This document shows, piece by piece, positions 15,062-44,819 of a stretch of 64,000 bases of DNA. A program made the position numbers and the translations under genes. The stretch comes from Strigamia acuminata. Lineage: Eukaryota. How positions within the stretch are numbered: the first letter of the stretch is position 1; every line of letters starts with the position of its first letter. The notes under the pieces were generated by a model, which saw only the letters and a program-made list of their open reading frames with translations, searched no databases and was not told the DNA's origin. The stretch covers positions 8,432,001-8,496,000 of the forward strand of contig OX442314.1 of assembly GCA_949358305.1 (NCBI GenBank), written 5' to 3'.

Positions 15062-15063
15062 TG

Positions 15064-15077
15064 GGTTATGAGCCCAG
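15064..15077 (+). promoter_or_regulatory. Primer-binding site, half-tRNA-iMet type
   Basis: GGTTATGAGCCCAG just after the LTR, one mismatch to the Drosophila copia-type PBS GGTTATGGGCCCAG. Confidence 0.8.
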
Positions 15078-19360: not shown

Positions 19361-19394
19361 CTATGTGATTCACCGTTACGATGAAGGGCGAGAA

Positions 19395-19518
19395 TGTTGG
19401 AACAATACTTTATAAAATCAACAATATATTTTGGTAACTATGTATGAAACGTGTGTTATTAAAAATTCAAGATGAATGTATGAATATATGAAAGCTCCAT
19501 TGCATATCTGACTCTTCA
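19395..19518 (+). repeat. copia 3' LTR
   Basis: Direct repeat of 14938-15061, followed by TSD ATATT. Confidence 0.95.
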
Positions 19519-21163: not shown

Positions 21164-21319
21164 GTTATTTACATCTTTGGGTTACAATGTTTAAAACAAA
21201 ATATTTATTTGGCAAAAATATATCGTTTCCAAAATAGAAGTTTGATTACAACGATGCAATAATGCCTCAACTTTGAAAAGCACTTCTTTTCAATCAATTC
21301 CCCACGAACACTTCATTTC

Positions 21320-21645
21320 TTAGCAAGGGTTAAGACATGCGCACTGGCCAGAGCGACAGTAACCTATTGGAAAATCCTTTTCGGTGCACAAGGGGTTACA
21401 TGTGAAGTTCCTATGACACGGGTGCAAGCCACCTACAGGAACAGGACGACCCCCTACCCAGCAATCGCGAGCTAATAAGTAATGGCGGTGATGATGTTGA
21501 TGATGATGAACGTGCTTTGCTAATAAAAATTGGAAATCTTTTTTCAAAGACAAAATATTAAACCAAAACTATAATTTTCTTGTTCAGAATAAACCTTACC
21601 AAAGCAAAACACAAGGCAGAAAAGCAAGGTGATTAGATATTTCAT
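21320..21645 (-). CDS. His-rich defensin-like peptide 5 (8 Cys)
   Basis: Exon1 21645-21600 MKYLITLLFCLVFCF; exon2 21519-21320 AKHVHHHQHHHRHYLLARDCWVGGRPVPVGGLHPCHRNFTCNPLCTEKDFPIGYCRSGQCACLNPC*. Confidence 0.9.
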
Positions 21646-21862
21646 TTTCAATGGATGCTCTTGTGGTGAAAGTATTTAACTACGTAATGAATAGCGGACT
21701 TTCTTTTTGGTACCGGTAAGGGTGTACACATACAAATTTATTAATGGCTTTATCTAAATAGTCTCTAATTGTTTTCAATATTAATTGACTAAAAGTTCAT
21801 TCAATAATGTATTATAAGCAATTTAATAATCGTACATAAGGATGCTATCAAGTTTATTTAAT

Positions 21863-22176
21863 GGCAGTGGCTACGTTCATGTCCGACATGAACGTATTAT
21901 TTTCATGACGCGCTGTGATTGGCTGAGATCTATTCATGTCGGTTCGTTTCCTCAACGTATTTTTCTCAAATTCAATGTTTTCGAGGTTCTAGCTTCTTTT
22001 TTTCTTACAAGGGGGGGCGTAGCCCCCCCTTGACCCCCCCAGACCTAACCTTATCTGTGTTTAGCAAAGTTGACAAAATGAGGATTTTCATCAATGTATT
22101 TCAATGTATCTCTCAACCAATCACAGCGCGTCATGAAAATAATACGTTCACGTCGGACATGAACGTAGCCACTTCG
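21863..22176. mobile_element. Mutator-like MITE (9-bp TSD) upstream of gene 5
   Basis: ~65-bp TIRs (GTGGCTACGTTCATGTCCGAC...), TSD TTATTTAAT on both sides; empty site at ~13411. Confidence 0.85.
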
Positions 22177-22269
22177 TTATTTAATATATAATATAAAGTC
22201 ATTGTTAATTATTAGAATGGATATAATCAATGCAAGTATTTCAAGGCTCAAATCACAAAATACTTAATA

Positions 22270-22801
22270 CAGTCAAACCTTGTTATATCAAATACTTAAA
22301 AATGGCTTGGTTGGTTGGTTGGTTGGCCATACAAGTCAACACCGAAAACCTGGGACACCAACTCAAAATCAAATTTACAAAATTTAATTCACAAAATAAA
22401 GTACAAAAAAATAAAAAATAAAATGAAAAAATTGTCATAGCCATAATGTTCAGCCAGGTACTGGAAGAAAATATCTGGAAAGTAATTAAAATAAATTGTT
22501 TCATTGCTAAGTTATCTCCATTTTTGTATCTTTCAATGGATTCATAATACCTCGAATAAAGCAAACACAAATCATACGTAGGACACATTTTTGGTGTTGA
22601 CTTATAGAACGTCATGTTAAAAAAATTTGAAAAACAAACTTTCGTTATAACGAATTTTAAGAAACCCGAAAAATCGGTTCGTTGTAACGAAAGTTCGTTA
22701 TATCAAATTTTTTTTTAACATGATGTTTAGCCAACCAACCAAGTCATTTTTATGTACCATATTCATTATATTGAAAAATTCGTTATAATGAGATTTGATT
22801 G
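22270..22801. mobile_element. Tigger/pogo-like non-autonomous element
   Basis: TA-CAGTCAAACCTTGTTATA ... TATAATGAGATTTGATTG-TA, with internal TTCGTTATAACGAA motifs as in 60813-62282. Confidence 0.65.
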
Positions 22802-22829
22802 TATGCAGTTTCAAGTTACTTTTTACCTC

Positions 22830-23131
22830 TTAGCACTCAATATTACACGTGCACGCGCCATTGACACAGCGAGCTGCTGGATAATTCGGGTGCTGTCGGA
22901 GGCATTTGGCTTGACACTGGGCATCAAGTAGGCCTACGCATCTGGTGATGCCGTATACAGGCATAGTCGCCGGCTGACAATTGGGGTCACCTTTTTTGTA
23001 GGCAGGAACTGCCGTCACTAGTAGGAATTGCAAATTTTTTCAAAGACAAAATATTAATACAACACTGAAATTTCCTTGTCCTTACCAACACACAGAATAA
23101 GACAGAAGAACAAGGCAATTAGATATTTCAT
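22830..23131 (-). CDS. Divergent defensin-like peptide 6 (8 Cys)
   Basis: Exon1 23131-23086 MKYLIALFFCLILCV; exon2 23017-22830 VTAVPAYKKGDPNCQPATMPVYGITRCVGLLDAQCQAKCLRQHPNYPAARCVNGACTCNIEC*. Confidence 0.88.
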
Positions 23132-26100
23132 TTTCAACGGATGCTCTTGTGATAGAAGAATTTAACTACGAAATGATTGAATAGCAGATGGAAAACTTTC
23201 CTTTTACCATGGTAGCGACACCACCCTGTGTATATAGATATATTAATTATTTATTTATGGCCACATCTGAATTGTCTCTAATCAATTGTTTTTAACATTA
23301 ATTAATGTATTTCAACATTCAATAATGTATTCTAAACAATTGAATTATCTTACATACGGATGCTGTATATTTAATTTAATGTTACATTGTTACTTATTAG
23401 AATTGATATATTTAAATGCTTTCAAGGCTCAAGTCACTAAAAACTTATCAATGGAATAATAAAACAAATCAAAAACAATAATACCATAAAGCTTCAAATT
23501 GCAGCCCAGGTGTTTACTTATTCGAACAGACAACAACGCTTTTGTTGTATTCGAACACAACACTAATCTATTATATTCGGAAAAAGTCGAACAAATTCAA
23601 CGAAAGAACTGAAATGGGTCTAAAGGTGGAAACAAAGAAACGGGTAAAATTCCAAAGCTCGCTAGGACAAGTTTAAAGAGGGAGTCATTTACAAGCTCAC
23701 TTTTGGCTAACCAGCTTAACTGGCAAACTCAAGCTAACTAGGAAGCTAGCTAAAGAAAATGGCTCCCAGAAATACCCGCTAAAATCTCCTCCAAGAATTT
23801 CCTCACGATTCTGATTAGCTGTTAAAGTCACATGACCAAAACACCAGCAAGCTTGAAGCTGGTAAATCAAACTCACAAGGGGAGCACATGTATAAGAAAC
23901 TCACAGATTGTTGCAATATTAAACGTGAAGGATTGTTATATCATGCTGAATGAGATCCTAAAATAATTTCATTCCATAAACAGCCAACAATGTAAAGAAT
24001 GAGCTTGTCACGTCGTATTCGACTCTTCAACAATAGTTTCGGAAATTTGTGAATTTCCAGGGATTGTAATAACCAGAAAACCTACAGTAGGTTCGCGGGC
24101 ACCGCAACTCTTAAAACTTTGCCGGGGGGGGGGGGAGTAGCTAGGTTAAGACAGCGTCTATTCGTGAAATCTGTATTTTTTGGGTACAGGGTATCAGCCT
24201 GGGCGCCGCGCAAAATGGCGAACGTTGATACTCGAATTAAGACCGAATATCGCTCTTCATTAAGGGAAAATTTCGTCACTTGCTAGGCGTACTTACGAAG
24301 AGAATATTTCTTCTCCTGGATACGCGCAAACGTTGGGTGAACGCGCGCTCAGGTACTGAACCGCAGACAACGTCGTCGAACTGTCGATAATGAAATAAAC
24401 ACACAATTGAGACGACATGCAATTCAAAATGTCTAGGCTGAAGAGGAAGTCACAGTCGTGGCATAAAAAGTATGACGAATTAAGACCGTCGAATACGCAG
24501 TTTCTCCAGTAAATGGTACGCAAAAATATGGGCCAATAATAAATATAGCGGTCAGATAGCCAACCATGAGAATTCGGGCTGCACAATGGCCATATGCACT
24601 AATGCGCAACATAAATTGCACTAAGAAATCTCCCAGTTGAGACAGGAGGTGTTGACTCGTCAAAGGCGAAAATTATTCTCTCTCTTTTTCAGTAATTTGG
24701 TAAAACAAGTCACCTCCGATCACATGTTCATGGCCAAGTCTATTTCCAAAAGGAAACTGGACAAAAACAGGTGGTCGGAGGGAAATATGCTAATTCAAAA
24801 GTGCGAATTTATCAATTTATGGCAAAATTCTCATGAAAGTCTGGATGGGGTGAGCATGACCAGGCCCAAGTAAGGATAAATGATAAAAATAAAAGAAACA
24901 AAATGAAATAAAACAATAAATTTGGATTTAGGAGAAAATGAAGTAACGTAAAAGAATTAAAACAATTTCCTAACAAAATGGGGCAAAATCAGGGAGAAGG
25001 CGCAGAATGCACTTAAAATTTTAAAAATTTCTACTGTCTAAAGTCAGGACCGTGACAAGCTCAAAGTTTGCACTATTTTGTCTGTGTATACATCCAATCT
25101 GAGCAATCAGGCCTAGTGTATGAATACTGTAAACAACAGTTGCTAGGTAAAAAATAGTTCCAAGATCCAAGTTGAATTTTATCATTGATATTCAATGATG
25201 TCATTTCATCATTTGAGATTCAAGCAAGCTTTGGATTTTTACCACCCCCTTGTGTTTCCACCTTAAGCGTTAAGAAATATCCGCTAACAGATGTCAAAAA
25301 GAAAAATATTTCCCTATAACCTAAAGAAATGATGGCATGTTTGCTTAAAAATTTACAGTAGTTACTACTAGTAATTATTAATGTTACACTTTCTATTGAA
25401 ATACAACACACATTAAAACAACATCAACGACCCACTTGTCACTAGTTCTCAAATCTCACATTAAACTAGAAAGCGCCAAAAGCTATTTCTATTCAAATCC
25501 CATTGCCATAACATGCATAGAAGTAAGGAAATTCAATTTCTTCACTGCAATATCTGTTTTTCTCACGTTCCTTTCGATTTCCATTTCCACAAGTTAAAAC
25601 AATTCCTGTATAGCGGTATCTATTTCCTTCACCTTTTGCCTTTCGTTTCTGTCTTTTCTTTTCTTTTCTTGCACGATCGCTCCGATTCGTTTAACACAGT
25701 CATTCCCTGCCAAGCTTCGATTTCTCTTTAAAGCTGTCGTAACATTTCCCATTAATGAAATCTCATTACAGCGAAAGTGGGAGAAACCGTGAAATAACTT
25801 AGAACGACAAGTAATTAACTGGAGTGGGAGGTATGAATGTTTGATACTGTCATCTTTAATAATAAAACATTAAATTCAATGCTGAACGTATTTTAAGTGT
25901 TTGGAACGATGACCGGAGTGACAAACGAAAATGGGTCATAAACTGTATCCAGACCGGACTCACCGGTCAAGATTGGTTCGAAATTTTCGATCAATGTTCT
26001 CTTGTTGCGGATGGGTTTATTTTTAGAACTATTTTTCTATTGTGCATTTGTATCTTTGATGGAATTGCTATGGACATTGGGAGTATGTAATCAATTTTGT

Positions 26101-28456: not shown

Positions 28457-29241
28457 TGCAAAATAAAATTAAAAATGTGCAAAATAAAATTAAAAATGTG
28501 CAAAATAAAATTAAAAATGTGCAAAATAAAATTAAAAATGTGCAAAATAAAATTAAAAATGTGCAAAATAAAATTAAAAATGTGCAAAATAAAATTAAAA
28601 ATGTGCAAAATAAAATTAAAAATGTGCAAAATAAAATTAAAAATGTGCAAAATAAAATTAAAAATGTGCAAAATAAAATTAAAAATGTGCAAAATAAAAT
28701 TAAAAATGTGCAAAATAAAATTAAAAATGTGCAAAATAAAATTAAAAATGTGCAAAATAAAATTAAAAATGTGCAAAATAAAATTAAAAATGTGCAAAAT
28801 AAAATTAAAAATGTGCAAAATAAAATTAAAAATGTGCAAAATAAAATTAAAAATGTGCAAAATAAAATTAAAAATGTGCAAAATAAAATTAAAAATGTGC
28901 AAAATAAAATTAAAAATGTGCAAAATAAAATTAAAAATGTGCAAAATAAAATTAAAAATGTGCAAAATAAAATTAAAAATGTGCAAAATAAAATTAAAAA
29001 TGTGCAAAATAAAATTAAAAATGTGCAAAATAAAATTAAAAATGTGCAAAATAAAATTAAAAATGTGCAAAATAAAATTAAAAATGTGCAAAATAAAATT
29101 AAAAATGTGCAAAATAAAATTAAAAATGTGCAAAATAAAATTAAAAATGTGCAAAATAAAATTAAAAATGTGCAAAATAAAATTAAAAATGTGCAAAATA
29201 AAATTAAAAATGTGCAAAATAAAATTAAAAATGTGCAAAAT
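28457..29241. repeat. 21-bp AT-rich satellite (AAAATAAAATTAAAAATGTGC)n, left part, ~37 units
   Basis: Homogeneous array that continues in register after the gypsy element. Confidence 0.95.
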
Positions 29242-30372
29242 TGTCACGGCCCGTGTTTCCTACGTGTACAGTTTACGCATTGTTAACCCGTGTTTGTTCC
29301 TATTAAACCTAATTTGCGATTCTCCTACCTTTGTTGTTTTGTTTATGTTTGATTCGTGAGTTTTCCTCATTTTCCTTCTATCTTATCTCTTACTCTCTCC
29401 TAACTTTCTCTTCATTCTCTCACTTTTCTCTTATCTACTCCTAGTTTTTCTTCTTTAGTTTATGATTTCGATGCAAGTCTATTTGCATATCTATTCTGGT
29501 CAGTACGCGTCGGCGTTAGTCATACACTTAGTATGCACCGACTGTACTGATTGGCTCTTGACTCTTCCGTGATTGGTCAAGCTTGGTTGAGTCCAAGTTT
29601 ACCTCTCACCCTATTTTTCCTCTTTTTCTTCAGTTGATCTCAGTATCCCGAACGCGTAGGTGCTCCTTTGGAGCCGGTGCTCATGGCTGAGGTTTAACTC
29701 CGAAGCTCACTTGTAGCTTTGCATTCGCCCTGGAATTCTGCAACACGGTTTCAGGCTTTCATTTCATTTCGCGTGTTAACTCACGGTTTTACACCACTCG
29801 TTCACCATTTGTTTTCCTGCTCCTTTTTGTTCATGTTTTATCGCCGTGACGCGTCATCCAAGGCCAAACAGGATTTGTTGGCCATAAGTTCGAAGTTTGT
29901 GCCGTTTATTTCGCGTGCGCGTGCATTTAGCTTAGTTTAGCCGCCTGCCATTTGGGCTTTAGCTTTAATTAAGCATTAAGTCAGGTTTAGAGTTAAGTTT
30001 AGGGCCCGTGCGTTGTATAAGCACGAGTAAATTGCCCATCCTCGTTCAGACTCGACAGTTTGGGGTTGCTTATGAGCCACTACGAGACGTGCATTCGTTT
30101 GCCTTCGTGTGAAAACACGATTGTTGGCGGGTCACGCGTTGGGTTTTGGTTCAGACGCGACTACCGGACATTCTGTCCCCGAGTTTTACAGCTCGGGATA
30201 CCCGGCCACAAATAAATATTAGTGTGGTGCACAGTATCTGAGAGTGTGTTAGCTGCCACTTCCTGCGCACATTCGATTTACGACAGGTACGAAACTACCA
30301 GGGTGTGTGAATTTACTGTTTCGCGGCGTCTTTCAAACGCTTCTAAACCACCTAGACTCGCGATCCATCACA
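29242..30372 (+). repeat. gypsy 5' LTR
   Basis: Direct repeat of 41586-42716; only two substitutions noticed. Confidence 0.95.
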
Positions 30373-30374
30373 CT

Positions 30375-30392
30375 TGGTGCCGAAACCCGGGA
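30375..30392 (+). promoter_or_regulatory. Primer-binding site, tRNA-Phe
   Basis: TGGTGCCGAAACCCGGGA is complementary to the 3' end of metazoan tRNA-Phe(GAA). Confidence 0.85.
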
Positions 30393-30548
30393 ATATCCCG
30401 TAGCTTTTCGATTGCTAGCCGTATAAACTGTTTCCAGTGGGCTAGTAATCATTATTCGGAAAACAAAGGTCGAGTGGTATCGTTACTCGCCTTTTTTAGA
30501 GTGGATCATCCATTTGAGTTTTGCTGCGAAATTGCTTGAGTTGACGCA

Positions 30549-32660
30549 ATGGCAGAGGGAGGGCATCCTAAAGAGGATAACTCCAAGAGTGTGTGGCCTA
30601 GCTGGATGCGTAGAGTCGGGGAGCGCTTGTGTGATGAAACTCCACGGCGTCCCCTTGATGCGCGTCCTCCGAGAACCCGCTCAGAGTATGGCTTGCCCGT
30701 GGCAAGAGGCGGTGGGCCGCCGTACCTCCTGCGACCACACGGGGATGTCACACGAGTAAAGGTAGAGGATAAATCCACTTCAACGGATAGTACCTACTGC
30801 CCGGACACTACTCCGTCCACGCGTGAGTCTCGTGTCGATGTGTCTGCTTCGGATCTTTTAACGCCCGTGCAACCAAATCCTTCGGCGCCACCTCAACAAA
30901 GGAGTAGTCCTGAGGATAACGTCGAGGAGGGGGAAGAAGAGGCTGGTCAACGGCCTCCAGAATGGCTGCCGTATTTGCAAAATGCGGAATTGGCCATGAA
31001 TGAGCGTATGGTCCGAGCATTAAACCAGTTTGGTCAGCATGTTGACTACCGACTGGGAAATTATAGAGATGAGACTCTTGTGGGGGTGAGACAAGTGGTT
31101 AGGGCCGAAATCGTGGCATTAGCTGTACAGCCCGAGGAGGAGGTAATTCCACCAGCTCAGCAAAGACCTCATAACTCTTTGCCTGGTGATGGACCTCGTT
31201 CTGACGGTCAGAGGGAACCTGGGGGAAGTGTTCAGTCTTCACGCATTCTGACGCCTAGCGAGTTGAACAGGCAAGGAATTGCAGTAGTAGGAAGGTTACA
31301 AGGGGATGTAAATCCTCGTTTACCTTCAAATGAGAGACCATCGGACGTGACCGCTCGCGCGGGGTCTCGAATGGGTACGCCCTCACAGTGTAACAGTGAG
31401 GTGATGAGGAGTATTATACGCTCAAAGTCGACAGCTGTTAGCTTGCCGGATACAGCAAGTGTTGATCGCGCAGCAGCTGCGCGCGGGGATTCGGTAAATA
31501 CGCGTTTGCAACGGGCGCGAGACGCCCAAGCCGCAGCGGTAACGCCGACGCCCCGGCAGCGGCCGCAGACGCGATATGATCAATATGACTTGTCGCACGT
31601 GAGGTCGGAACATGTGCCGATATTTGATGAGGATGATCAATCCTATAATGCGGTCGAAAGATTCCTAGCAAAATTGCGCGCCCACTATATCATGACGCGC
31701 ATTCCGGATGAAGCGTATATTGACTTGTTCATTCCTTTGGCGCTGTGTGGGAAGCCCTTAAATTGGTACTTGCACTTACGCCATAAACCAAAAACATGGG
31801 ATGAATTTGTTATGCGTTTCCGGAAACGTTATTCCCTCAAGGAGGCCGAAGCAACGGTCCTCCTGACGGATGCCTGGCAGGAAGTAGGGGATGATACGGC
31901 CGAATTTCTGTGTGAGATCAGTCGTTACCTCGAAATGATAGGTATTCGGGGGGATAGGCAACAATGGAATATGGCGAAACATCGCCTCCAACCGCAGATA
32001 ACGGATGCAATGACTCGGTACGGAGTCCGCTTCATGTCGCAGGCCATAGAGATGGGGCAGGAGGCTGACAGCAAATTGGCGTTGCGTTCTCTTCAGCAGT
32101 ATAAGTTCGATGAGCGCGGAGTGAGAAGAGGTCCGGTGCCTCGACCTCAATCCAAGGACAAGGATAAGCAAGCTGTTAAGGCAACCAAAAAGGTGGTAGA
32201 GCCTGCCAAAACAAAGGCGGCGGAAAAGCCTCCGCCTGGTCGCTTCCAGTTTGACAAAAGGAAATTGGTTGCGTTGGCTGAAATGTTTGGGGCTACGAGT
32301 GAGGACCTGCAGAGTGTTGCTGGGCAGTCCGTTGTTAGTGTTGCACCTTCGAGAGTGCCAGAGCCGCAAATAAACGCGTCTGTAAAAGTCTCGGAGAATA
32401 AGCCTACTCCGGCTGTGGGGCCGGCACAATGTGGACATTCTGCCCATACCTTCGCCAATACGGCCAATCCCCCAACGACACCGTTGCCACCCGGAGCTGA
32501 GTGGGTGCGCAATCGGAAGGACAGATGGTACATGCGTGATATTGAAAAACGCATCGCATTATGTCCTCACTGCTTTAAGCCCTGGCAGTTTCCGGGAAAC
32601 GACCAGGGTCCACTGTCCAAACCATCCAACGGAAAGGCAGCGGACCCGAAACCCAAATAA
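30549..32660 (+). CDS. gag: Gag (703 aa)
   Basis: Position after the PBS; retrotransposon-gag-like core LCGKPLNWY..PKTWDEFVMRFRKRY; only a partial knuckle CPHC at the C-terminus. Confidence 0.85.
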   Translation: MAEGGHPKEDNSKSVWPSWMRRVGERLCDETPRRPLDARPPRTRSEYGLPVARGGGPPYLLRPHGDVTRVKVEDKSTSTDSTYCPDTTPSTRESRVDVSASDLLTPVQPNPSAPPQQRSSPEDNVEEGEEEAGQRPPEWLPYLQNAELAMNERMVRALNQFGQHVDYRLGNYRDETLVGVRQVVRAEIVALAVQPEEEVIPPAQQRPHNSLPGDGPRSDGQREPGGSVQSSRILTPSELNRQGIAVVGRLQGDVNPRLPSNERPSDVTARAGSRMGTPSQCNSEVMRSIIRSKSTAVSLPDTASVDRAAAARGDSVNTRLQRARDAQAAAVTPTPRQRPQTRYDQYDLSHVRSEHVPIFDEDDQSYNAVERFLAKLRAHYIMTRIPDEAYIDLFIPLALCGKPLNWYLHLRHKPKTWDEFVMRFRKRYSLKEAEATVLLTDAWQEVGDDTAEFLCEISRYLEMIGIRGDRQQWNMAKHRLQPQITDAMTRYGVRFMSQAIEMGQEADSKLALRSLQQYKFDERGVRRGPVPRPQSKDKDKQAVKATKKVVEPAKTKAAEKPPPGRFQFDKRKLVALAEMFGATSEDLQSVAGQSVVSVAPSRVPEPQINASVKVSENKPTPAVGPAQCGHSAHTFANTANPPTTPLPPGAEWVRNRKDRWYMRDIEKRIALCPHCFKPWQFPGNDQGPLSKPSNGKAADPKPK

Positions 32661-32703
32661 GTCGGACGTTGGAAGCTTTAGATAGCATAAGCGGTTGGAT
32701 GGT
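32594..32703 (+). promoter_or_regulatory. -1 programmed ribosomal frameshift signal
   Basis: G_GGA_AAC in the gag frame; the -1 frame is open into pol; downstream stem GGGTCCACTGTC/GGCAGCGGACCC; loop ACCATCCAAC complementary to GTTGGATGGT (32694-32703). Confidence 0.8.
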
Positions 32704-35700
32704 ACCCCCTGCGTTGCAGAAGACCAGTACCACCGCGTTAGCGGCTTCTAAGCCGAAAATGACAAATTTCATAATGTTGTCACCACCCGAATTTTTGGCT
32801 TCCAAAGAGCCGAAATTGATAATCGGGTTGAAGGACCGTTGTCGGCGAGACGCGGCCTTTGTTAAAATCGCCTGGATCAATATCGAGTTCATTGCAATGA
32901 TGGACAGCGGTGCACAGACGTGCATAATGACCATGGCATTGTATGAGAAACTCGCAAAAGAGATAGGCATAGAAATGGTGAAACTGGACGAAACCATCCG
33001 GACAGCCGACAATCATATTACCAAAGTGGTTGGCTGTGCACAACTAGCCGTCCGTGCTCCTACGGCGGTAGTTTGCTTTACTTGCCTCATCATAGAGGAG
33101 GGGTCTCAAGAGCTCCTCTTGGGGCTAGATTTCTGTAAGGCAGTTGGTCTGTGTACCGACCACGCCAATGAATACTGGTTCCTCTTAGGGGATGGCACGC
33201 GGCATCCCTTCCTCACAGAAGAGCAAGCTAGGGCATCTGATCCAGTGATCTTATTCCCTTTAACAAAGGAACAACCTTCCCTCCCGGAGGGAATTGCGGT
33301 TAAGGGGCCCCCTCTTTACAACCTTCCGGCTTTGCGAAATCCGCTGGTCCCCAAGCCAGAGGAAACGGCGGTGCCCGTCAAGCTTGTCGGCCAAAAGGAG
33401 CGGGAACTGACCCCCGAGATTCCTGCAAAGGAGGAGGAGGCAGAGGAGAAGCCTGTGGTCGCTACAAAACCACCAATTAGTGAAGCTAACTGTGTCTTGC
33501 TAAATAAGCGTAATTTCGAAGTGGAGTTATTCGAGCCCCCACATGAGGACAATCCTTGCATTGTCAAAGTGGTTGTTGCTCGAAGAGGGCAGGACGCTCA
33601 AAAATGGACATTCATATGGTCACCTAAGAGACGGGAAAAAACCGCACGAAGGAACATCGTGCGAGTTACGCGTAAACTTGGGAGAAAGGCCATGTGTTTG
33701 AGTCAGATGCGTCGAGCCATTAAGTTGCGTAAAGCAAGAGTTAAAGCGGTGGCTAAACGAACGTTGGTTGAGACTGCAGATTCTCCGAGTGGAGAGAGAA
33801 ATGTCGTCGGCAACGCGGAGATCTCTTCTGCTTGTCAAAAGACGGAAGGTACTCCAAGACAGCATGATGTTAATTTCGTCCAATACATCCCAAACAGAGA
33901 TCCTACCAACCTCGCTTGGGTGTATGATCAGCTGTGTAATCAGTTGGAGCCGAAACGCATTAACCACTTAATGGATGCGTTGAAACCAGTTGCTCACATC
34001 TTTCGTGAGGAATTGGGGCTCTGTAATAACACACAGTTTGAAGTGAATCTGAAGCCTGATTTCCGACCTATCCATGTCCCGGTACGTCCGGTGAATCCGG
34101 CAAAAAGGGAAATAATCGATGCCTATATCGACCAAAAGTTGGCGCAAGGAGTAATCAAGCGCTCCAAAAGCGACTGCGCCGTGGCGCCCGTAGTTGTCCC
34201 CAAAAAGGACGGACGCTGGCGCTGCGCAATGGATTTTAGGCCGATCAACTCCCAAACTTTGCCTGATGTTTACCCCCTCCCAGATATCGACAACATCTTT
34301 GCATATCTGGGCGGGGCAAAATGGTTTTCCATCATCGACGGAAGGGAAGCGTTCCACCAAATAGGAGTCCGACCTGGAGATGAACGATATCTCGCATTTA
34401 TCACCCACAGGGGACTCTTTGAGTATACGCGTATGCCCTTCGGTCCGATCAATGGCCCTGCCACCTTACAAAGGGCCATGAATTTGACTCTAGCTGAGCA
34501 TCTCTACAAGTTTGTCTTTGTGTACATCGACGACATAATCGTGTTTAGTAAGACCTTCGAAGAGCATGTGACCCACTTGCAAAAAGTGCTCACTTTGCTC
34601 GACCAAGCGGGGTTTACAATGAACGCAGGAAAAACGGAGTTGTGCAAGACAAGTCTTGAGGTGCTCGGACATATTGTCGAGGAGGGACTTATCCGTCCTA
34701 ACCCAAAGAAGACCGACGCGATCAGCAAGTACCCGGCCCCCACTAACTTGAAGGAGTTACAACGCTTCAAGGGTATGATCGGGTACTACTCGTCGTTCTT
34801 CCCCGGATATTCCAAGACCTGTGAAGTCTTTCGAGTTCTTATGCGTAAGAATGCGCCATGGAACTGGACGGCGGCGCACCAGGCAGCTTTCGAGTATCTC
34901 AAAAATCAAGTGTCGCTATCTACTTTGCACAGGAACTTCCCGGACTGGAGTAAACCTTACATCTTACAAACCGATGCGAGTTATTCTGGTCTAGGGGCTG
35001 CGTTGATGCAGATCAACAATGACGGCGTACGCGTCCCAATTGCCTTTGCATCACGGGCCTTAAACAGTGCAGAGAAAAACTATACGGCGACGGAAATTGA
35101 GTGCCTGGCCGCCGTCTGGGCCGTTAAACGCTTTAGAGCATACCTCGAGTTAATGGATTTCTATCTTGAGAGTGATCACAAGTCTTTAACATGGCTTTGG
35201 GCCCAGCGCGAGCCAAAGGGCCGACTGGCGAGATGGATTCTTTCGCTGTCGGAATACCGATTCACATTCCTCCACTGTAGTGGTACGAAGAATCGGGTCG
35301 CCGATGCGTTGAGTCGGGCGCCGGTTGACCCGCCGATCGAGCTGGATGACGAAGACTGTCCAGCGTTGGATGACACATATTACTGTGCGTACTTCGATGA
35401 TTTCAACGACTGGCCAGTACTCAAAATGGAGGAGTTAGATGAGGTGGCTCATTGGAAATCATCCAACTGCAAAATCGTTAGAGCGGTAACAATGCGTAAA
35501 CAGAAACGTGCGTTCCTGGCGAGATTGAACGCCTTGTCGGCTACGGCAGTGGATGTATGTCCGGTGGAGGACGAGCCCCCTCCAAAAAGAGGACGGGGAC
35601 GTCCACGGAAAAATCCCATTGCAAAGGGGCCGACTCAGGCGGGACCCTTGCCGGGAGCACAGCCTACTCTGCCAATGTCGGACGAAGAATCTGTGGCGGT

Positions 35701-37702
35701 GTCTTTGCCTAAGGAAGACGGGCCTGTAAAAAGGAAAAGAGGTCGTCCGCGGAAAACTCCGGCCAGCGGGGACATGACGCAGCCTAAATCCTTACCCGTA
35801 ACGCGTCCTATTCCACCAACTTCGGAAGAAGAGTCAGGTGCAGTTTCTTTGCCAATTGACGTTCCTGAGAAGAGAAAACGGGGGCGACCAAAAAAGGTTG
35901 TGGAGAAGCGACCGGTCGGAAGGCCGAAAAAGATTCCCATCATCTTCGATCGCTCTACGGGCTCGGAAGCCAGTGAAATGTCGTTGGACGGTGAGGAGCT
36001 GCCGGGAGACACGGACTCCGAAGAGTTTCAAATTCCTGTGATTCCACGGGACTTGTCACCAAGGACCCAACCACGGCGAGATTTGGTTTCACCAACACCC
36101 TCTATCGATGCGGAGTTGCTTGACCACTCTGAGCACTCGTCTGACGAGAGTTTCTACTCACTTCCGGCGGATCATCCGACAATTGAGATTCTCCCAACAC
36201 AGAAGGCCGTTAAAGAAGCCCAACTAGCCGATGAATGGTCTAAGGGACTTATATTATATCTCAATTCAGGGTCTCTGCCGCCAGGTGAGATGGAGGCTGC
36301 AGAACTTAAGAAACGAGCAGTGGACATGGCGTTACACCGTGGTCTGCTCTGCAAGTTTCCACCAACTAAGATCGGTCAACAAGCTCCTACGCGTCGTATT
36401 TACCTCCCTCAATCCCTTCGTTACAAGTATTTTCATTGCTTACATTTCCCACCAACCTCTGGCCATCTCGGGATCGAGAAAACACTAATGCGTCTAAAAA
36501 CACGTGTGTTTTGGCCGGGGATGAAAAAAGATGTAGCAAATTGGATTAAAGTTTGTGAACCTTGTCAAAGGGCGAAGGTCGAGCGGAGGCTACCGTATGG
36601 CGAGATGGAGACCGCGAAACCGAGACGGTTGTTTCGGACCATTTACGTCGACTACTTCGGGAAAAAGTTGAAGTCCACTGGCGGACACTGCTACGCGTTC
36701 GTAATGGTGGATGCAGCCAGTCGCTGGGTGGACGTTAGACTCACCGAAAAAGCAGACGTTTCTACAACAGTGAAACAACTTAAAAAGTTCACTTATAGAT
36801 GGGCTTATCCAAAAACTATAATAAGTGATAACGCCCCAACCTTTCGCTCTGCCAAGTTCCAGGCACAGTGCGCCGAAATGGGAATGGTAAATAAATATAT
36901 TTCCGCCTACCATCCGCAGGGGAACTTGGCGGAAAGACTCAACCAATCACTTAAAACGTGCATCCTCGCGTATATAGACGAACATACGCGTTGGGATAAG
37001 CACATTGGTTCTTTCATTTTAGCAATTAATACTGCTTACCAGACCTCACTCAAATTTTCACCTTACATGATGGTCACAGGACAAGAAGCACGTTTTCCAG
37101 GAGATGTCGACTCTGACACTGACGACGGAGAACCCTTGCCGCCAGATGAATCGCGTTTTCTTCATCGATACTTATTACGCATCCGTGAGGAGGCGAGGAA
37201 AAATCTGGATGCCGCACATCTACGCCATAAGCGTTGGTATGACCGAAAAAGGCGGCCCCATATGTTTAAACCTGGGGACTGGGTCACCGTCAAAAGTCGT
37301 GTTTTGTCATCAACTGATAAACAAATAAGTTCGGGTTTCCAACACCGGACTGAAGGCGTTTATATGATTCATCGACTCCTGGGACCAAATACCGTGCTCT
37401 TGATGGACCAGGACGGGAAGATTTCCCAACCTATTCATGTGTCGGATCTTCGCCATTGGTACCGGGCTGAAGAGCCGGAAATTGAAGTTTCCGATGTCTC
37501 CAGTGTGGCTAGTGGGGCAGAGGATCACGAGGAATTGGATTCTGAGTTGGAAATTGATGAGGACATTCCCCAAGAAGACTTGGATGATATTTCTGCACGC
37601 GTTGTTAAATTCCAAACTGAAGTCCGTAGTATTTGCGTCGACTTCGAAGAGAGGAATAAACGCGTCAAAACATCGAAATTAGCGGCAGAAATTATCTCCT
37701 AA
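32594..37702 (+). CDS. pol: Pol (protease, RT, RNase H, AT-hook insert, integrase), expressed as a Gag-Pol fusion
   Basis: MMDSGAQ, RT YPLP/RMPFG/YIDD, RNase H LQTDAS..EIECLA..DHKSL..VADALSR, integrase H..GHLG..CEPC, YVD, ISDN, AER; frame uninterrupted. Confidence 0.95.
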   Translation, partial: GKRPGSTVQTIQRKGSGPETQISRTLEALDSISGWMVPPALQKTSTTALAASKPKMTNFIMLSPPEFLASKEPKLIIGLKDRCRRDAAFVKIAWINIEFIAMMDSGAQTCIMTMALYEKLAKEIGIEMVKLDETIRTADNHITKVVGCAQLAVRAPTAVVCFTCLIIEEGSQELLLGLDFCKAVGLCTDHANEYWFLLGDGTRHPFLTEEQARASDPVILFPLTKEQPSLPEGIAVKGPPLYNLPALRNPLVPKPEETAVPVKLVGQKERELTPEIPAKEEEAEEKPVVATKPPISEANCVLLNKRNFEVELFEPPHEDNPCIVKVVVARRGQDAQKWTFIWSPKRREKTARRNIVRVTRKLGRKAMCLSQMRRAIKLRKARVKAVAKRTLVETADSPSGERNVVGNAEISSACQKTEGTPRQHDVNFVQYIPNRDPTNLAWVYDQLCNQLEPKRINHLMDALKPVAHIFREELGLCNNTQFEVNLKPDFRPIHVPVRPVNPAKREIIDAYIDQKLAQGVIKRSKSDCAVAPVVVPKKDGRWRCAMDFRPINSQTLPDVYPLPDIDNIFAYLGGAKWFSIIDGREAFHQIGVRPGDERYLAFITHRGLFEYTRMPFGPINGPATLQRAMNLTLAEHLYKFVFVYIDDIIVFSKTFEEHVTHLQKVLTLLDQAGFTMNAGKTELCKTSLEVLGHIVEEGLIRPNPKKTDAISKYPAPTNLKELQRFKGMIGYYSSFFPGYSKTCEVFRVLMRKNAPWNWTAAHQAAFEYLKNQVSLSTLHRNFPDWSKPYILQTDASYSGLGAALMQINNDGVRVPIAFASRALNSAEKNYTATEIECLAAVWAVKRFRAYLELMDFYLESDHKSLTWLWAQREPKGRLARWILSLSEYRFTFLHCSGTKNRVADALSRAPVDPPIELDDEDCPALDDTYYCAYFDDFNDWPVLKMEELDEVAHWKSSNCKIVRAVTMRKQKRAFLARLNALSATAVDVCPVEDEPPPKRGRGRPRKNPIAKGPTQAGPLPGAQPTLPMSDEESVAVSLPKEDGPVKRKRGRPRKTPASGDMTQPKSLPVTRPIPPTSEEESGAVSLPIDVPEKRKRGRPKKVVEKRPVGRPKKIPIIFDRSTGSEASEMSLDGEELPGDTDSEEFQIPVIPRDLSPRTQPRRDLVSPTPSIDAELLDHSEHSSDESFYSLPADHPTIEILPTQKAVKEAQLADEWSKGLILYLNSGSLPPGEMEAAELKKRAVDMALHRGLLCKFPPTKIGQQAPTRRIYLPQSLRYKYFHCLHFPPTSGHLGIEKTLMRLKTRVFWPGMKKDVANWIKVCEPCQRAKVERRLPYGEMETAKPRRLFRTIYVDYFGKKLKSTGGHCYAFVMVDAASRWVDVRLTEKADVSTTVKQLKKFTYRWAYPKTIISDNAPTFRSAKFQAQCAEMGMVNKYISAYHPQGNLAERLNQSLKTCILAYIDEHTRWDKHIGSFILAINTAYQTSLKFSPYMMVTGQEARFPGDVDSDTDDGEPLPPDESRFLHRYLLRIREEARKNLDAAHLRHKRWYDRKRRPHMFKPGDWVTVKSRVLSSTDKQISSGFQHRTEGVYMIHRLLGPNTVLLMDQDGKISQPIHVSDLRHWYRAEEPEIEVSDVSSVASGAEDHEELDSELEIDEDIPQEDLDDISARVVKFQTEVRSICVDFEERNKRVKTSKLAAEIIS

Positions 37703-39009
37703 TCGTGTCAATGTTTTTGTTTATTCTTTGACAATTTTTAGTGTATTTTGTTTATTTTCTCCGGTTATTGCACCTTTTCATGTTTATTCTGCGCATGTCG
37801 GGACTCAAGTTCGCTATTTGTGATTGCTAGTAAGCAATTTGCTCAAGTGGTGGCGCTGAACGTCATTGGTCAGCTGACCGATGAGTCAGTCTTCACACAT
37901 GTGTGTGACCGCCATTGTTTTTCCACTTGTTGAGCAACGCGTATGCCTCGTGTAAGCGGGCGGAGATTGAAAACGCGTCGAGGCGATACACTTGAGCGCC
38001 TGACTGTCGAGGATTTGAGCCTGTTAAGTGTGCTGGTAGCCGTGAGTAACTTTATTTTGTTTTCGTGGACAATTATGAACCATTTTGAGAGTTTGAGTGG
38101 CGAACGCCGATGCTCGTGCCGTGCCGACAATAATGTAATTATTACGCGTTGTCATGTTAGGATTAATGAGTAATTTTATTGTTCAAACTATTTCACCTGA
38201 CTTTTACGCGTTTTCTACGTGTTTTTGGTGTCAAAACGGCCCGAGTTAGGATTCTTCGTCACTCTCGCTTTTGAAAATCCAACATGGCCGAATTTTCCCC
38301 CTGCTTAGGAATGTGTGAGGGTCACGTGGTCGGTTTCTAACCTCAACCCGGGCTCGAGCGTCCATCTTTGTTGGACTTAGAAAATTTTCTTCGTGTTTAG
38401 TCATTCACATGTGCTCACGCGTGCCTGTTCACTTGTATTTAAAATGCCGAGGCGATTGGAGATAATTTATTGCGCTCTCTTTGTATTCTTGTTTGCGTTT
38501 TATTTAGAGGAAATTTGCTACTATTTAGTGATTTATACTTTGCATATTTTGATATTTATGTACAAGTTACTGTTCGCGTAATGCCAATTCATGTCTTATG
38601 CGTTTGTTTTTGGGTGTATTACCTTATAGTTAGCGGAATCTATTTGGAGTGTAGACGAGAGTCATTTGTATGCTTTTGTGTATTTTTCGAACTGTTAAAT
38701 CTGGCAGTATACGCGTTCTTTCTGTATTTAATTCGACTTAATCGCGCCATGGCTTGGTGGATAAGTTATGAGTTGTAGATATGTTAGTGAATGTTGAAGC
38801 ACACGCGTTTTTTGTGATCATTATTTATATTTATGCGTTACATGCGTATGTGAGCTTCCTTGTGAAAACTAGCGTTATTATTCTGAGCACTGTGTATTTT
38901 TTGTTCATTCGCCATGTTTGGATGTGGTTTGCCCACGAGTGAATATTTTATTTGATTTGTAAATTTATTGTTGCGACTTTTTCTTCACCATTCAGTTTGA
39001 GATCTTATC

Positions 39010-40970
39010 ATGGCGGACCAGGACAGCAGTTCCGAGGGGGACGAATCACTCGATTTTACATCGGATGAGGAGCTTTATGAGGATGAAGGACTAGGAAGTA
39101 TGGCCGGAGCGGAACAATGCTCAAGTGCGGGACAACGCCGACCTGCTTCGCGTCGTGGCGTTTACCGCCCTCCATACCCGGTACCCGATTTGTACGCGAA
39201 AGGGGATTTCCAAACTTCGAGATATGCCCCCTGTGCTCCGGCTGGGGCCATCTGGAAAATATGTCGAGAGAATGCAACGCGTGTTTGGGGAAAGGCGTAC
39301 TCCGCCGTGGCAAATTTAAGATTTGGATGAGGAGGCTCCAAGCAATGGCCTTGCGAAAAAAGCGCTGGGATAAGCGGGATTTATCAAAGTATAAGTGGCC
39401 GACGGTTTTCCAAGTCATACGAGGAGACATTAGTGCGACTACGCGTTTTGTGCGAAGGCACGAGACGTTTTGGCGGAACACTATTGCGGAGGCCACGGCG
39501 GCCGGAATACAGCCTTTAAATTGGCAGTACCCTCCGCTCAATTCCATCATGCCGGTCCCGGGTGCCTGTGCTCCCCCTCTGCCGGCCCTCTTGAGAAGTT
39601 TTCCGACTGGAACGAGTACAATAAATGTGATTCGACACTCAAGGGAAAGTGATGTTCCCACCATTACGCGTCCACTTCATTCTGCCGCGTTGCGTCAGCG
39701 GGAAGAGCCACAGACCGTAGTTAGGGCTGGAATGACGCGTGAGGCCGAGGAGCAAGAGCGCGTCCGCCTCATCGAGGAGAGGAACGACCATCTCGTGGAC
39801 GAAATCGCCCAACTGCGAAAACTTCATTTGGATGCGAAAGCGCGGGATCAAGCCGTTCCGTCGAATTCAACGGTGGTTGTCACCGAGCGAGATCGCCCCA
39901 ATTTACCAGCGATCGAGGGGGCGCCGATCTGCGAAGTGGAGGCATTGGCCATCGTTCCGGTTCGGGCGAGAGACCCGAGAACCATACGTCCACGACCGGC
40001 GTTGGAGTTTCACCAGACCCAGAGTGAGGACGAAGAAACCACTGAGTGGGGAGAAGGAGCACACGAACAACTAGCCATTGAGGGGCCGCCGGCTGCAGAA
40101 AGGAGCCGAAGAGGAGTTGGAGCTCTCATCCCCCGAAAGAGTGAGAAAACAGTGATGCACGGCTTCACTCAACGTGCAGGGGAGTCGGCGGAGGATTTCC
40201 GAAAACGATGCTTTGCGACGCGTGCGCGGCGGCAGGCACGAGCCCAGAAGGAGGCTGAGGATCTTCGGGGAAAGGAGTTAGTCCTTTTGGAGAAATTGGA
40301 TGCGATCGATTGGTTCCACCCGGAGGACAACCCGTACCTTGGTAGTATTACTGGATCGATCAAAGACCGAGCGATGTCCCGGCGGCTGGGTTGGTCGACG
40401 GATTTGTCGGGCCCTCAATCACAGTTGCCCATCCGACACCCGGATTTGGTGGCGACGGGTCCGCGTCGACGATGTTTTGGGGACGCGTCACCTTTCAATA
40501 TGCTTGCGATCCCTCGGGCCACCGACTGGGAGACAGCGATACGACACGTGGCAGCGAGGCAGCGGTCCGATGGAAATCGGATGCGATTCCTGGACTACCA
40601 CGATTTCCCCACTACATTCTGGGCGCGGAAGGGATTTAACGAAATTTTCCCCTTCGGCACCCTCGACTGGCAGTGTCCAACGCGTCGACGAGCGACGTCG
40701 TATATTCAGGCAGACCCGGATTTGTGGCGACAGTTTTTCTACGCCATCGCCCGCACAGAGCACGGATGGCCTGAATCGCAGGCCCATGCCATTTTGGAGC
40801 TTCGAAATGGACAAATCCTCTTCCTAGAAAGCCTCATCGCAGATGTACTTACGCGTTACCACCCGCGTACGGAGGAGCAGATGGAGGACGTGTTGGTTTA
40901 TCGCGTCGTTGGACTCGTGGAGGAGCTTCTTCAGCTGATGTTCCCGGACGGTGCCAGTGACAGTGACTAA
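39010..40970 (+). CDS. ORF3 accessory protein of unknown function (617 aa from ATG 39117; ~653 aa if a 1-nt frameshift near 39120 joins the ATG at 39010)
   Basis: Long GC-rich ORF in the env position, preceded by a polypyrimidine/CAG acceptor (38978-38995); two CxxCxGxG motifs and a coiled-coil-like stretch; no evident signal peptide or TM segment. Confidence 0.8.
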
Positions 40971-41585
40971 TGTGAGGAAGTACCATTGCGAACTTGGTGA
41001 ACGGTTTCTCGAACGTGACTTTTGTTTTGTGCGCAACTTTTAAGTTCAAATGGATAAGTCTCCATTTGGACGCGTGTTTAATTTTATTGTTTGTGTTTAG
41101 CATTTCCAGTGATATTTGTGAACATTATATTTTACCCGACTGTGATATATAATTTATTTTGTTTGTTTTCTAGTGTTTTCCGCGCCTCTTGTACCTATCC
41201 GCGTGCCCGGGAGACGCCTCATTCCTCCTCCGAGAATCATGTGCCGGTGGAGATGACCCCCTAAATTTTCCTCTCGGTCGTGTGGATGGGTGCAATGAGC
41301 GTAGGAGTTCCAGCAATCAACGATTGCTTGGAAGCGTAAGTTTGTGTTAGTTTTAGCTTTATTTCAAAGTGTCAATTTGCCTTACTGTGATTTGAGTATA
41401 TATTTTAACGCGTCTGACGCGATTGTTTGATTTTGCATTATGTCTTTAGTTACTTTTGATTTATCTTTGATTGTGTTTAATTCGCTAATGTTGCGATTGA
41501 TTATGTTCTTGATTATTTTATTGATTTGATTGTATCGTTTCATTACTTCATCAAACAGAGTAATAAAACTCTGGCTGTGGGGGCG

Positions 41586-42716
41586 TGTCACGGCCCGTGT
41601 TTCCTACGTGTACAGTTTACGCATTGTTAACCCGTGTTTGTTCCTATTAAACCTAATTTGCGATTCTCCTACCTTTGTTGTTTTGTTTATGTTTGATTCG
41701 TGAGTTTTCCTCATTTTCCTTCTATCTTATCTCTTACTCTCTCCTAACTTTCTCTTCATTCTCTCACTTTTCTCTTATCTACTCCTAGTTTTTCTTCTTT
41801 AGTTTATGATTTCGATGCAAGTCTATTTGCATATCTATTCTGGTCAGTACGCGTCGGCGTTAGTCATACACTTAGTATGCACCGACTGTACTGATTGGCT
41901 CTTGACTCTTCCGTGATTGGTCAAGCTTGGTTGAGTCCAAGTTTACCTCTCACCCTATTTTTCCTCTTTTTCTTCAGTTGATCTCAGTATCCCGAACGCG
42001 TAGGTGCTCCTTTGGAGCCGGTGCTCATGGCTGAGGTTTAACTCCGAAGCTCACTTGTAGCTTTGCATTCGCCCTGGAATTCTGCAACACGGTTTCAGGC
42101 TTTCATTTCATTTCGCGTGTTAACTCACGGTTTTACACCACTCGTTCACCATTTGTTTTCCTGCTCCTTTTTGTTCATGTTTTATCGCCGTGACGCGTCA
42201 TCCAAGGCCAAACAGGATTTGTTGGCCATAAGTTCGAAGTTTGTGCCGTTTATTTCGCGTGCGCGTGCATTTAGCTTAGTTTAGCCGCCTGCCATTTGGG
42301 CTTTAGCTTTAATTAAGCATTAAGTCAGGTTTAGAGTTAGGTTTAGGGCCCGTGCGTTGTATAAGCACGAGTAAATTGCCCATCCTCGTTCAGACTCGAC
42401 AGTTTGGGGTTGCTTATGAGCCACTACGAGACGTGCATTCGTTTGCCTTCGTGTGAAAACACGATTGTTGGCGGGTCACGCGTTGGGTTTTGGTTCAGAC
42501 GCGACTACCGGACATTCTGTCCCCGAGTTTTACAGCTCGGGATACCCGGCCACAAATAAATATTAGTGTGGTGCACAGTATCTGAGAGTGTGTTAGCTGC
42601 CACTTCCTGCGCACATTCGATTTACGGCAGGTACGAAACTACCAGGGTGTGTGAATTTACTGTTTCGCGGCGTCTTTCAAACGCTTCTAAACCACCTAGA
42701 CTCGCGATCCATCACA
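41586..42716 (+). repeat. gypsy 3' LTR
   Basis: Direct repeat of the 5' LTR, preceded by G-rich GGCTGTGGGGGCG. Confidence 0.95.
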
Positions 42717-42911
42717 AAATAAAATTAAAAATGTGCAAAATAAAATTAAAAATGTGCAAAATAAAATTAAAAATGTGCAAAATAAAATTAAAAATGTGCA
42801 AAATAAAATTAAAAATGTGCAAAATAAAATTAAAAATGTGCAAAATAAAATTAAAAATGTGCAAAATAAAATTAAAAATGTGCAAAATAAAATTAAAAAT
42901 GTGCAAAATAA
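42717..42911. repeat. 21-bp satellite, right part (~9 units)
   Basis: Same unit as 28457-29241. Confidence 0.95.
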
Positions 42912-42991
42912 AAAAAATTATTCTAGTGAAATCAAGTATTAAATCACAACTTAATGCTGTTTCAAAGTGTTCTTGATGTAAATGAATTATA

Positions 42992-43068: not shown

Positions 43069-44587
43069 TACTTAGTAATTACAATTCTTTTTTTTCTATT
43101 TTTTTATTTGTTTATTACTTAAAACTTTTTCCAGACACTAATTTAGTGACTTTACCTGGTGGCTGTTTTTGGCAAAATCCTCAGTTTTCCGAACGGAAAC
43201 ATACGTACACGATAAGTGTCTTAAAAAAAAGCCAAAAATTGTTACGCACATCGTTAAAAAGAGACAAATTGCTGTTTTTTCCCGGAAAAATGGCGATTTA
43301 TGCATTTATTTCTGATTTTCGGATAATATGCATTTTTTGCCAATTTCGGCTTTTTATTTTTAAGTTAAGAAGTACTATAAGCTTACAAATAAACAATTTT
43401 CGACTTTTGTGTTTTCACGTGTAAAAAAAATTAAATTTACGGTAGATTGCAGAATTTAATAAAAAAAAAATTAAATTCATTAACCCCAGTAAGGAAACAG
43501 CAAAACTGTGTGATGATCCCACTGTTGACAAAACAAAAACAGGTGTTTCCTATTCACGGTTCCTTTGTAGTCGTTGTCACCGGCAAATACCAGTCATCGG
43601 GTCTTTCCGCTGAATGCAAGAGTGGATCAAAGAAAGGAAGAGGAAAGAAGAAAAAAAAACAATCCAAGAGTGACAAAAAGATCTTGTCCAACACAGATGC
43701 CACCAGTTCTTCCTGTGAGCTCAAACTTCTTCATTTCTCACAAGGTCATTGAACCATCCCCACAATAGTAATGGAATGGTCGTACAACTTGATCTAGTAA
43801 ATCCACTGGAAGCTGTTTGGTCTTCAAACAAACACTGCTAACAAAACTTCACATCTGCTACATAACCCACAATTGCATCACATTTTATCCAAAAACTTCC
43901 TCCTTTCATTGATTCAAGTGAAACTAATAAAGATTACAACGGAGAGGAGCATTTACACCGATGCAAAGCTTTGTGCTCACATACTGCAAATTTAGTATTC
44001 AATTTTGCTTTCAAAGCATCAATGCATGCTCTAATGTAAAGCTTATCCATCGACAGTTGCTGCCATTGGTGGTTTTAGCGAGGCCCTAGGCAAATGTGTA
44101 GGTGCAAGCCGTTGAACAGACATTAAGGAACGTAAGTTGAGACCTGGATCCAGTGGATCGTAATAAGATGCATGTTTCGTTGACGTTCCTTGATGCTGGT
44201 AAAATGTGATTACAGATTTTCGTTTAAAACAAAGCTTCTTAAAATTTTTCCACTTGCAACCCCTTTTAAGGTGGGAAACACAAGGGAGCGAATAAAATTT
44301 AAAAGCTTGCTTTTACTTGAAAAAGCAGCTAAAAACTCGCCCACTTGAGCGCGGAGGAATAATTATGTTAGAATTTGGGCCAGAAATTTGAGTTTTCTTG
44401 ATATTCTGAAGGTTATTACTAAAATTTGGGTAAATTTATAGAAATTTAGGCCAGTTTCCTACATTTTAGACATCTAAAAGCTTGTTTTCGTTCAATTCTC
44501 ATTGAAAAAATTTTGTACTCATTTCTAACAACATGAAAAATGAAAAACAATTTTGTTTTAATTTTTCTTTTCTTCTCGTCTTTGCAG

Positions 44588-44819
44588 ATTATTCGAAGAG
44601 CACAACGAACTTCTCAATTTGTTCACCAAATTCAGTGATTTGAAAACTAAAGAGCAGCAGTCAGAAAGTCTAGAGTTACAGGAACATGCAACGCTTGTCA
44701 TGACGACTTTGGACGAAAGTATCCAGGCACTGGAAAACGTGGACGCATTCACCGCCTACTTGCATCAAGTAGGCCGGTCCCACACAAAAGTGCCCGGATA
44801 CAAAAAGGAATACTTCTGG
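44588..44819 (+). CDS. Globin X-like (arthropod neuroglobin-like) central exon
   Basis: TTTGCAG|A-LFEEHNELLNLFTKFSDLKTKEQQSESLELQEHATLVMTTLDESIQALENVDAFTAYLHQVGRSHTKVPGYKKEYFW|GTAAG; CD1 Phe, distal and proximal His; intron phases fit canonical B12.2 and G7.0. Confidence 0.92.

Follow-up and report, generated by a model that had tools for sequence, protein, structure and literature searches.

A young LTR retrotransposon in the 64,000-nt stretch of DNA analysed here (the window) carries the palindrome ACGCGT 33 times when one LTR is counted, where order-1 and order-2 Markov models predict 3.0–3.6 copies, and it bears behind pol a third gene, ORF3, in the position of env. Our tentative explanation, drawn from sequence, is that ORF3 is a non-Env gene, likely frameshifted in this copy, whose product would be a nuclear regulator that binds ACGCGT and keeps its own family active. 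The element thus offers, in an arthropod, a concrete candidate pair: a specified 6-bp target and an orphan protein of the zinc/basic type. Moreover, host reader or not, a palindrome kept in all compartments of an element via codon choice is unexplained.

Architecture and age of the element

The element is assigned to Ty3/gypsy from the order of its Pol domains (PR-RT-RH-IN), and it has TG...CA LTRs, a target duplication, a tRNA primer site and a gag followed by a PR-RT-RH-IN pol. Its parts, except those around ORF3, are:

29242-42716, + strand: whole LTR retrotransposon, with ORF3 as third gene after pol
29242..30372, + strand: 5' LTR, 1131 nt, TG...CA, four ACGCGT sites
30375..30386, + strand: primer-binding site of the tRNA-Phe(GAA)/His type, exact reverse complement of the Phe_GAA_His_GUG 12-mer (available part of PMC13524379, supplement file 2)
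30549..32660, + strand: gag, 703 aa (PF03732, E=0.0033, below cut-off)
32579..37702, + strand: pol (PR-RT-RNase H-integrase), overlapping gag, from profile search
32594..32600, + strand: predicted -1 frameshift heptamer GGGAAAC, presumably a slip site by the heptamer rule, then a hairpin (-20.6 kcal/mol, a value without shuffle control), both read from the sequence
35585..35941, + strand: four AT-hook-like motifs GRP[RK]K between RNase H and integrase (PF02178, E=0.13, below cut-off)
41562..41567, + strand: AATAAA, directly before a G-tract and the 3' LTR
41586..42716, + strand: 3' LTR, pairing with the 5' LTR
29505..42483, no strand: dispersed ACGCGT palindromes, 37 in total

The element is young because its 5' and 3' LTRs mismatch at only 2 of 1131 bases. 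A 4-bp target duplication, AAAT, lies on either side of it within a 21-bp minisatellite; the units of this minisatellite are 100% identical, and the insertion interrupts it (28457-29241, 37 copies; 42715-42913, 9.5 copies). Since Pol carries the AT-hook-like motifs, which sit in a long low-complexity linker, and since the minisatellite is AT-rich, targeting to AT-rich DNA is suggested; a literature search for AT-hooks in arthropod gypsy elements found no match. Relatives of Pol were at most 44% identical among the matches listed. No complete CCHC knuckle was detected in Gag by profile search (no zf-CCHC match), whereas the neighbouring copia element has a zf-CCHC match. At the C-terminus of Gag (window 32540-32660), a CxxC that is not completed to a CCHC knuckle stands directly before the predicted frameshift site.

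Three sequencing runs from two studies carry the element with many variants, and it is therefore a multi-copy family; one of the runs may be the source of the window. The CpG observed/expected ratio is 1.0–1.4 in the element, that is, undepleted, against 0.49 in the neighbouring copia. Substitutions between copies run about equally in both directions (C>T 79, T>C 90 in run X1) and so give no sign of a methylation-driven decay to be countered.

The ACGCGT palindrome

All hexamers were tested after the abundance of ACGCGT had caught the eye, and ACGCGT was the top hexamer in each compartment, with 13 copies against 0.9–1.3 expected in non-coding DNA, 12 against 1.5–1.7 in gag-pol and 8 against 0.6 in ORF3, while the second-commonest palindrome of the element occurred 8 times. 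Outside the element the motif is not enriched: the host flank (44,952 nt) holds a single copy against 2.97 expected, and the neighbouring copia none against 0.1. Codon choice holds the palindrome inside pol and ORF3, where the observed numbers (9 vs 1.31 and 8 vs 0.79, respectively) lay above 5000 of 5000 synonymous shuffles; the excess in gag was not significant (3 vs 1.02, P=0.069). All six Thr-Arg pairs of ORF3 are encoded by ACGCGT. Coding-region sites make up 20 of the 33 and fall in all three frames, and density reaches 3.3–5.4 per kb in the LTR, the spacer before ORF3 and the 3' region compared with 1.4–1.8 in gag-pol. No flanks common to the sites were found, and one short two-copy repeat touches an ACGCGT site while no other repeat does. 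Spacing was evener than random in gag-pol (P=0.017) and in the 3' part (P=0.021), a two-part split that was chosen post hoc, and was not significantly so over the whole element (P=0.087).

As a comparison, more than one copy of ACGCGT was present in only 1 of 25 other gypsy-type loci (L001, with 3). A top hexamer as significant as that of this pol (1e-5) is found in 8 of 14 other gypsy-type ORFs, and the three of those eight that were examined have local tandem peptide repeats, in one frame and within one kilobase. Tandem peptide repeats are present in the polyproteins of loci L006, L008 and L020, and integrase lies upstream of RT in L004, L006-L009, L011 and L018-L020. In the most diverged run, X4, a loose end at 29849 keeps ACGCGT while its flanks differ (one case). 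Our literature search, whose scope excluded most subscription journals, Repbase and Dfam, gave no matching system for ACGCGT in insects; for one palindrome kept in all compartments of an element by codon choice, the literature search gave nothing comparable among the papers listed.

The third gene and its predicted protein

The region downstream of pol contains these features:

37703..38995, + strand: T-rich spacer, seven ACGCGT sites, GTGAGT donor-like word at 38042
38978..38997, + strand: splice-acceptor-like tract; an initiator-like TCAGTT at 38992 overlaps it and is followed by a DPE-like GGACA at +28, the canonical spacing
39010..39204, + strand: likely true 5' part of ORF3 from the first ATG, 65 codons, acidic (net -8), from codon score and X2/X3 contigs
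39195..39204, + strand: probable register break of this copy against other copies, from contigs of runs X2 and X3
39195..40970, + strand: main ORF3 frame, 591 aa, eight ACGCGT sites
39225..39296, + strand: CxxCxGxG-x8-CxxCxGxG, predicted single C4 zinc site, from motif, shuffles and weak profile matches
39351..39377, + strand: basic patch LRKKRWDKR, a possible nuclear signal or DNA contact
39738..39848, + strand: predicted long helix / coiled coil 1 (model, H208-244)
40188..40304, + strand: predicted long helix / coiled coil 2 (model, H358-396, pLDDT 64-74)
40311..40940, + strand: C-terminal region, predicted helical (model, mean pLDDT 37)

The first-pass annotation had described a 617-aa ORF behind a T-rich spacer of 1.3 kb and a strong splice acceptor. 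The ORF is open from ATG to stop at 39117-40970, the spacer measures 1293 nt with 39% T, and a pyrimidine tract plus CAG does precede ORF3, ending at 38995. Seven sites have at least 13 of 15 pyrimidines before YAG, and 38995 is the sole one in the internal region, the other six lying in the LTRs. Pairs of initiator-like and DPE-like words number 7 across the window against 3.95 expected, which is not significant (11 of 100 shuffles reach 7). From these signals, the RNA of ORF3 could be spliced or could begin at an internal initiator. The T-rich + strand suggests further introns. The 3' untranslated region has a donor-like GTAAGT at 41336, and the LTR has a strong acceptor/initiator-like site at 41974-41977, with its counterpart at 29630.

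The start that had been assigned to ORF3 is doubtful, as ATG 39117 is the sixth ATG past 38995 and the first, at 39010, is in another frame. This first ATG lies 14 nt 3' of the acceptor-like site in good context (ATCATGG) and opens a 106-aa acidic ORF, and over 39010-39116 its frame has a codon score of +5.5 versus -18.1 and -6.4 for the other two; in the short windows 39117-39194 and 39205-39330 the codon score fails to pick the expected frame. Contigs of X2 and X3 contain at ~39195-39204 a longer form that, by eye, joins the 39010 frame to the long frame. The depth of these contigs is 574 in X2 and 76 in X3, and the total depth at 39299 is 457 and 124, respectively; the two versions of the extra stretch have two differences, both silent in the 39010-derived frame (by eye). 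The rows listed for X1 did not include the longer form, and one gap, of unstated position, is present in the X3 contig across the ORF3 start. Because the X2 and X3 contigs read from the 39010 frame into the long frame, ORF3 is likely frameshifted near 39200 in this copy. Of the 617 aa, about the first 26 would then be an out-of-frame artefact, and the N-terminus of the family's protein, we infer, is acidic. As a working description, ORF3 very probably starts at ATG 39010 on an RNA that is spliced or begins internally; its protein would have an acidic N-terminus, then a C4 zinc site accompanied by a basic helix, two long helices and, at the C-terminus, a helical region.

The two zinc-binding words reported earlier, CPLCSGWG and CNACLGKG, are present at residues 37 and 53, and shuffling the 591-aa downstream part 200,000 times never produced such a pair. 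Type I DnaJ proteins have four CxxCxGxG repeats. The label 'DnaJ-type' is hence only partly right, because the two repeats of ORF3 make up half of a DnaJ zinc domain. Profile matches of a 102-aa piece to DnaJ (PF00684, E=0.0053) and Anti-TRAP (PF15777, E=0.021) were both far below cut-off, and PDB matches of the pair were weak (1exk, E=0.035; 3lcz, E=0.1). The likeness to Bacillus Anti-TRAP, which has two CxxCxGxG repeats, is confined to the motif. No J-domain was matched at E<=10, and a lone HPD tripeptide at residues 441-443 stands in a region without predicted helices. Downstream of the zinc pair, the basic patch is as described, with a net charge of +15 over residues 41-120. Hydropathy alone also bears out the lack of an evident transmembrane helix (best 19-residue Kyte-Doolittle mean 1.39). 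Single-sequence structure models were poor (pLDDT 39.8 and 37.4), and two long helices stand out in them; the segment that had been called coiled-coil-like is their best-predicted part, a helix at 208-244 with pLDDT of about 80-85. The Trp-rich character of the C-terminal domain is mild, since 7 of 15 Trp lie in residues 399-551 but another 6 lie in the first 119. Such a layout of acidic start, zinc site with basic helix, coiled coils and helical end would resemble that of a dimeric transcriptional regulator.

No relatives of ORF3 were found by word-index search (near lengths), by phmmer against 1.84 billion representative proteins at E<=0.001, in metagenome and viral contigs, or in the ESM Atlas with the whole and with residues 1-105 of the downstream part, and tblastn of both ORF3 pieces against 25 RT-related loci was blank at E<=1. 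Fold searches with the low-confidence models gave nothing significant (BFVD, best E=0.34; PDB, best E=2; VIA wide fold search, best Z=5.9 with rmsd 5.0 over 71 residues), and blank searches with models this poor show neither absence nor novelty of a fold. A match to an Env or to a host gene family, which would have overturned the proposal of a novel intracellular accessory protein, was sought with Pfam profiles (for Env at E<=10) and with sequence searches, and there was none.

Several observations bear on whether ORF3 is maintained. The chance of 591 open codons from base composition is about 3e-11, and GC climbs from 0.38 to 0.56. All 4 ORF3 variants are silent in the main frame against a neutral share of 0.30, and 2 of them overlap the tail of the 39010 frame, where they are missense; silent variants are 10 of 13 in gag and 10 of 15 in pol, these counts being taken from 40 of 982 rows chosen by depth, just 4 of them in ORF3. 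Over 39734-40888, 1155 nt of ORF3, an X3 contig differs at 80 letters (~7%) and has no gap, whereas 551 nt of an X2 contig that lies largely in the spacer show 69 differing letters and 13 gaps. These data are consistent with coding constraint on ORF3 among copies, albeit thinly. At four contig joints (37888-39052, 38509-39734, 39251-39432 and 39302-39711) the acceptor, the ORF3 start or the zinc pair is bypassed, a pattern compatible both with action of the gene in trans and with its decay. The accessory-protein proposal accordingly stands in that ORF3 is non-Env, without relatives and with signs of constraint, but the N-terminus it described is probably wrong.

Candidate readers of the palindrome and known systems

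A reader is required because the palindrome is dispersed and selected, and a palindrome suits a dimeric DNA binder. The simplest candidate reader is the element's own orphan zinc/basic protein, an assignment for which we have limited confidence. An RNA made by splicing or internal start would encode a protein with an acidic N-terminus followed by the C4 zinc site and basic helix; the coiled coils would hold an ORF3 dimer, the zinc/basic part of which would bind ACGCGT, so that ORF3 would coat all copies of the family in trans, and the acidic end or the C-terminal domain would recruit activators or block silencing. If ORF3 acts in trans, the existence of young copies in which it is broken or deleted would be explained. 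The pairing of protein and motif is circumstantial, given that it comes from their co-occurrence in one element, and the earlier guess of an anti-silencing or nucleic-acid-binding factor likewise gains circumstantial support from the element-wide palindrome.

Alternatively, a host transcription or chromatin factor may read the palindromes (for instance a CGCG-box binder like CAMTA), and ORF3 would be an accessory protein with a separate job, for example as a protein-interaction decoy against silencing or apoptosis. The motif excess demands merely some reader, ACGCGT is densest in the LTR, spacer and 3' region, and the solved structures most similar to the zinc pair, those of DnaJ and Anti-TRAP (both weak matches), belong to proteins that bind other proteins. 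For a host activator, however, sites inside gag and pol would be needless, and the flank is not rich in ACGCGT; we regard this explanation as rather unlikely. Somewhat less likely still is a role at the RNA or particle stage, in which ORF3 would be a nucleocapsid-like or export protein replacing the Gag knuckle, with ACGCGU aiding RNA pairing or packaging, or in which Pol or Gag would be the reader. Every ACGCGT site would fall in the genomic RNA, the zinc site of ORF3 adjoins a basic stretch, the zf-CCHC match is missing from Gag and present in copia, Pol has its own AT-hook-like motifs, and the near-motif ATGCGT is strand-biased (12 vs 3.7 expected on the + strand; ACGCAT 5 vs 2.3). Against this, local RNA folds left ACGCGT sites unpaired at a share of 0.32 (n=33), no higher than the 0.33 of composition-matched controls (n=150; P=0.85), and an acidic N-terminus would better fit a transcriptional role. 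Display of ACGCGT in kissing loops is not supported by the same comparison.

It is improbable that ORF3 is a captured or decaying passenger, functionless now, with the motif excess having some other cause. In favour of a passenger are the likely frameshift of this copy, the contigs that lack portions of the gene and the blank homology searches, but the silent variants and the gap-free divergence argue the other way, and ORF3 has the strongest coding-region ACGCGT excess, which suggests that its association with the element is old. That ORF3 is an Env or cell-fusion protein that has diverged strongly is very improbable and largely refuted, since the env position, the acceptor-like site, three RxK/RR words and two long helices are set against the lack of a hydrophobic helix (max KD19 1.39) or signal-like N-terminus from either start, an acidic upstream start, only 2 N-glycosylation sequons and no Env family match in Pfam at E<=10. 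Fusion-protein fold comparison, from low-confidence models, gave no significant match.

With ORF3 as the tentative reader, the closest parallel is VANC of Arabidopsis VANDAL elements, an anti-silencing accessory protein with a short motif dense within its element and rare outside (available text of PMC5735166 and PMC6719617). VANC21, as the accessible part of PMC5735166 describes it, binds a short motif that is dense in its own element and rare elsewhere; in our case, 'outside' is a 45 kb flank and one copia element. VANDALs are plant Mutator-like DNA transposons, whereas the present element is an arthropod LTR retrotransposon, and their motifs are 9-mers in non-coding tandem repeats of one orientation (same partial source, PMC5735166), in contrast to a dispersed 6-bp palindrome that also lies in coding DNA. 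ORF3 has no Pfam match to DUF1985 or DUF287, and its mode of action would be VANC-like although it is not a member of that family. Extended by this analogy, ORF3 would be an element-encoded, sequence-specific chromatin regulator whose target is written about every 200–700 bases in the LTRs, spacer, gag, pol and ORF3, and thus an independently evolved, family-specific case of VANC-logic anti-silencing in the arthropod germ line, which we consider doubtful though conceivable. As far as the available text of a 2019 review goes, just three transposon-encoded anti-silencing mechanisms are given, all from plants, and none against the piRNA pathway, although one was speculated for Drosophila (PMC6719617); a 2025 meeting report mentions anti-silencing, in its accessible portion, for VANC only (PMC12859917).

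Non-Env ORF3s are already known (PMC5408684 and PMC6431247, both in part). Bdelloid rotifer LTR retrotransposons have family-specific ones of the GDSL, DEDDy, CC and TM kinds, likewise extra ORFs 3' of pol that replace env and typically form a separate spliced unit (available part of PMC5408684). The present ORF3 differs in having a C4 zinc pair and an acidic start and no membrane features, and Pfam profiles found no GDSL or DEDDy domain in it. With errantivirus Env proteins of the F type and HSV gB type (PMC13524379, available part), ORF3 shares only position, as it lacks a signal, a membrane anchor and ectodomain similarity; 12 errantiviruses have the exact Phe/His 12-mer primer according to the same partial source. 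Compared by described features and not by tree, mosquito gypsy elements of the Osvaldo lineage resemble this one in long LTRs (997-2055 bp vs 1131), a ~4-bp target duplication and large size, whereas their primer is invariably tRNA-Lys, in place of Phe/His here, and they have 1-2 ORFs (available text of PMC3286476). No system matching ORF3 was found in the literature within the scope already given.

The rest of the window contains the copia element (15248-19360), which has one in-frame stop at 18790 and no ACGCGT, and, clustered on the minus strand at about 7000-23400, short Cys-rich genes in repeated copies (repeat families D9 and D12-D16), which we take to be defensin-like. Broken transposase pieces, presumably Tc1-like, lie at 57227-58025 (by eye). 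The window is recognised as DNA of an arthropod by a globin exon. A neuroglobin-like exon at 44586-44819 is 62-71% identical to 8 matches, which include wasp and Daphnia neuroglobin-like proteins and a firefly protein.
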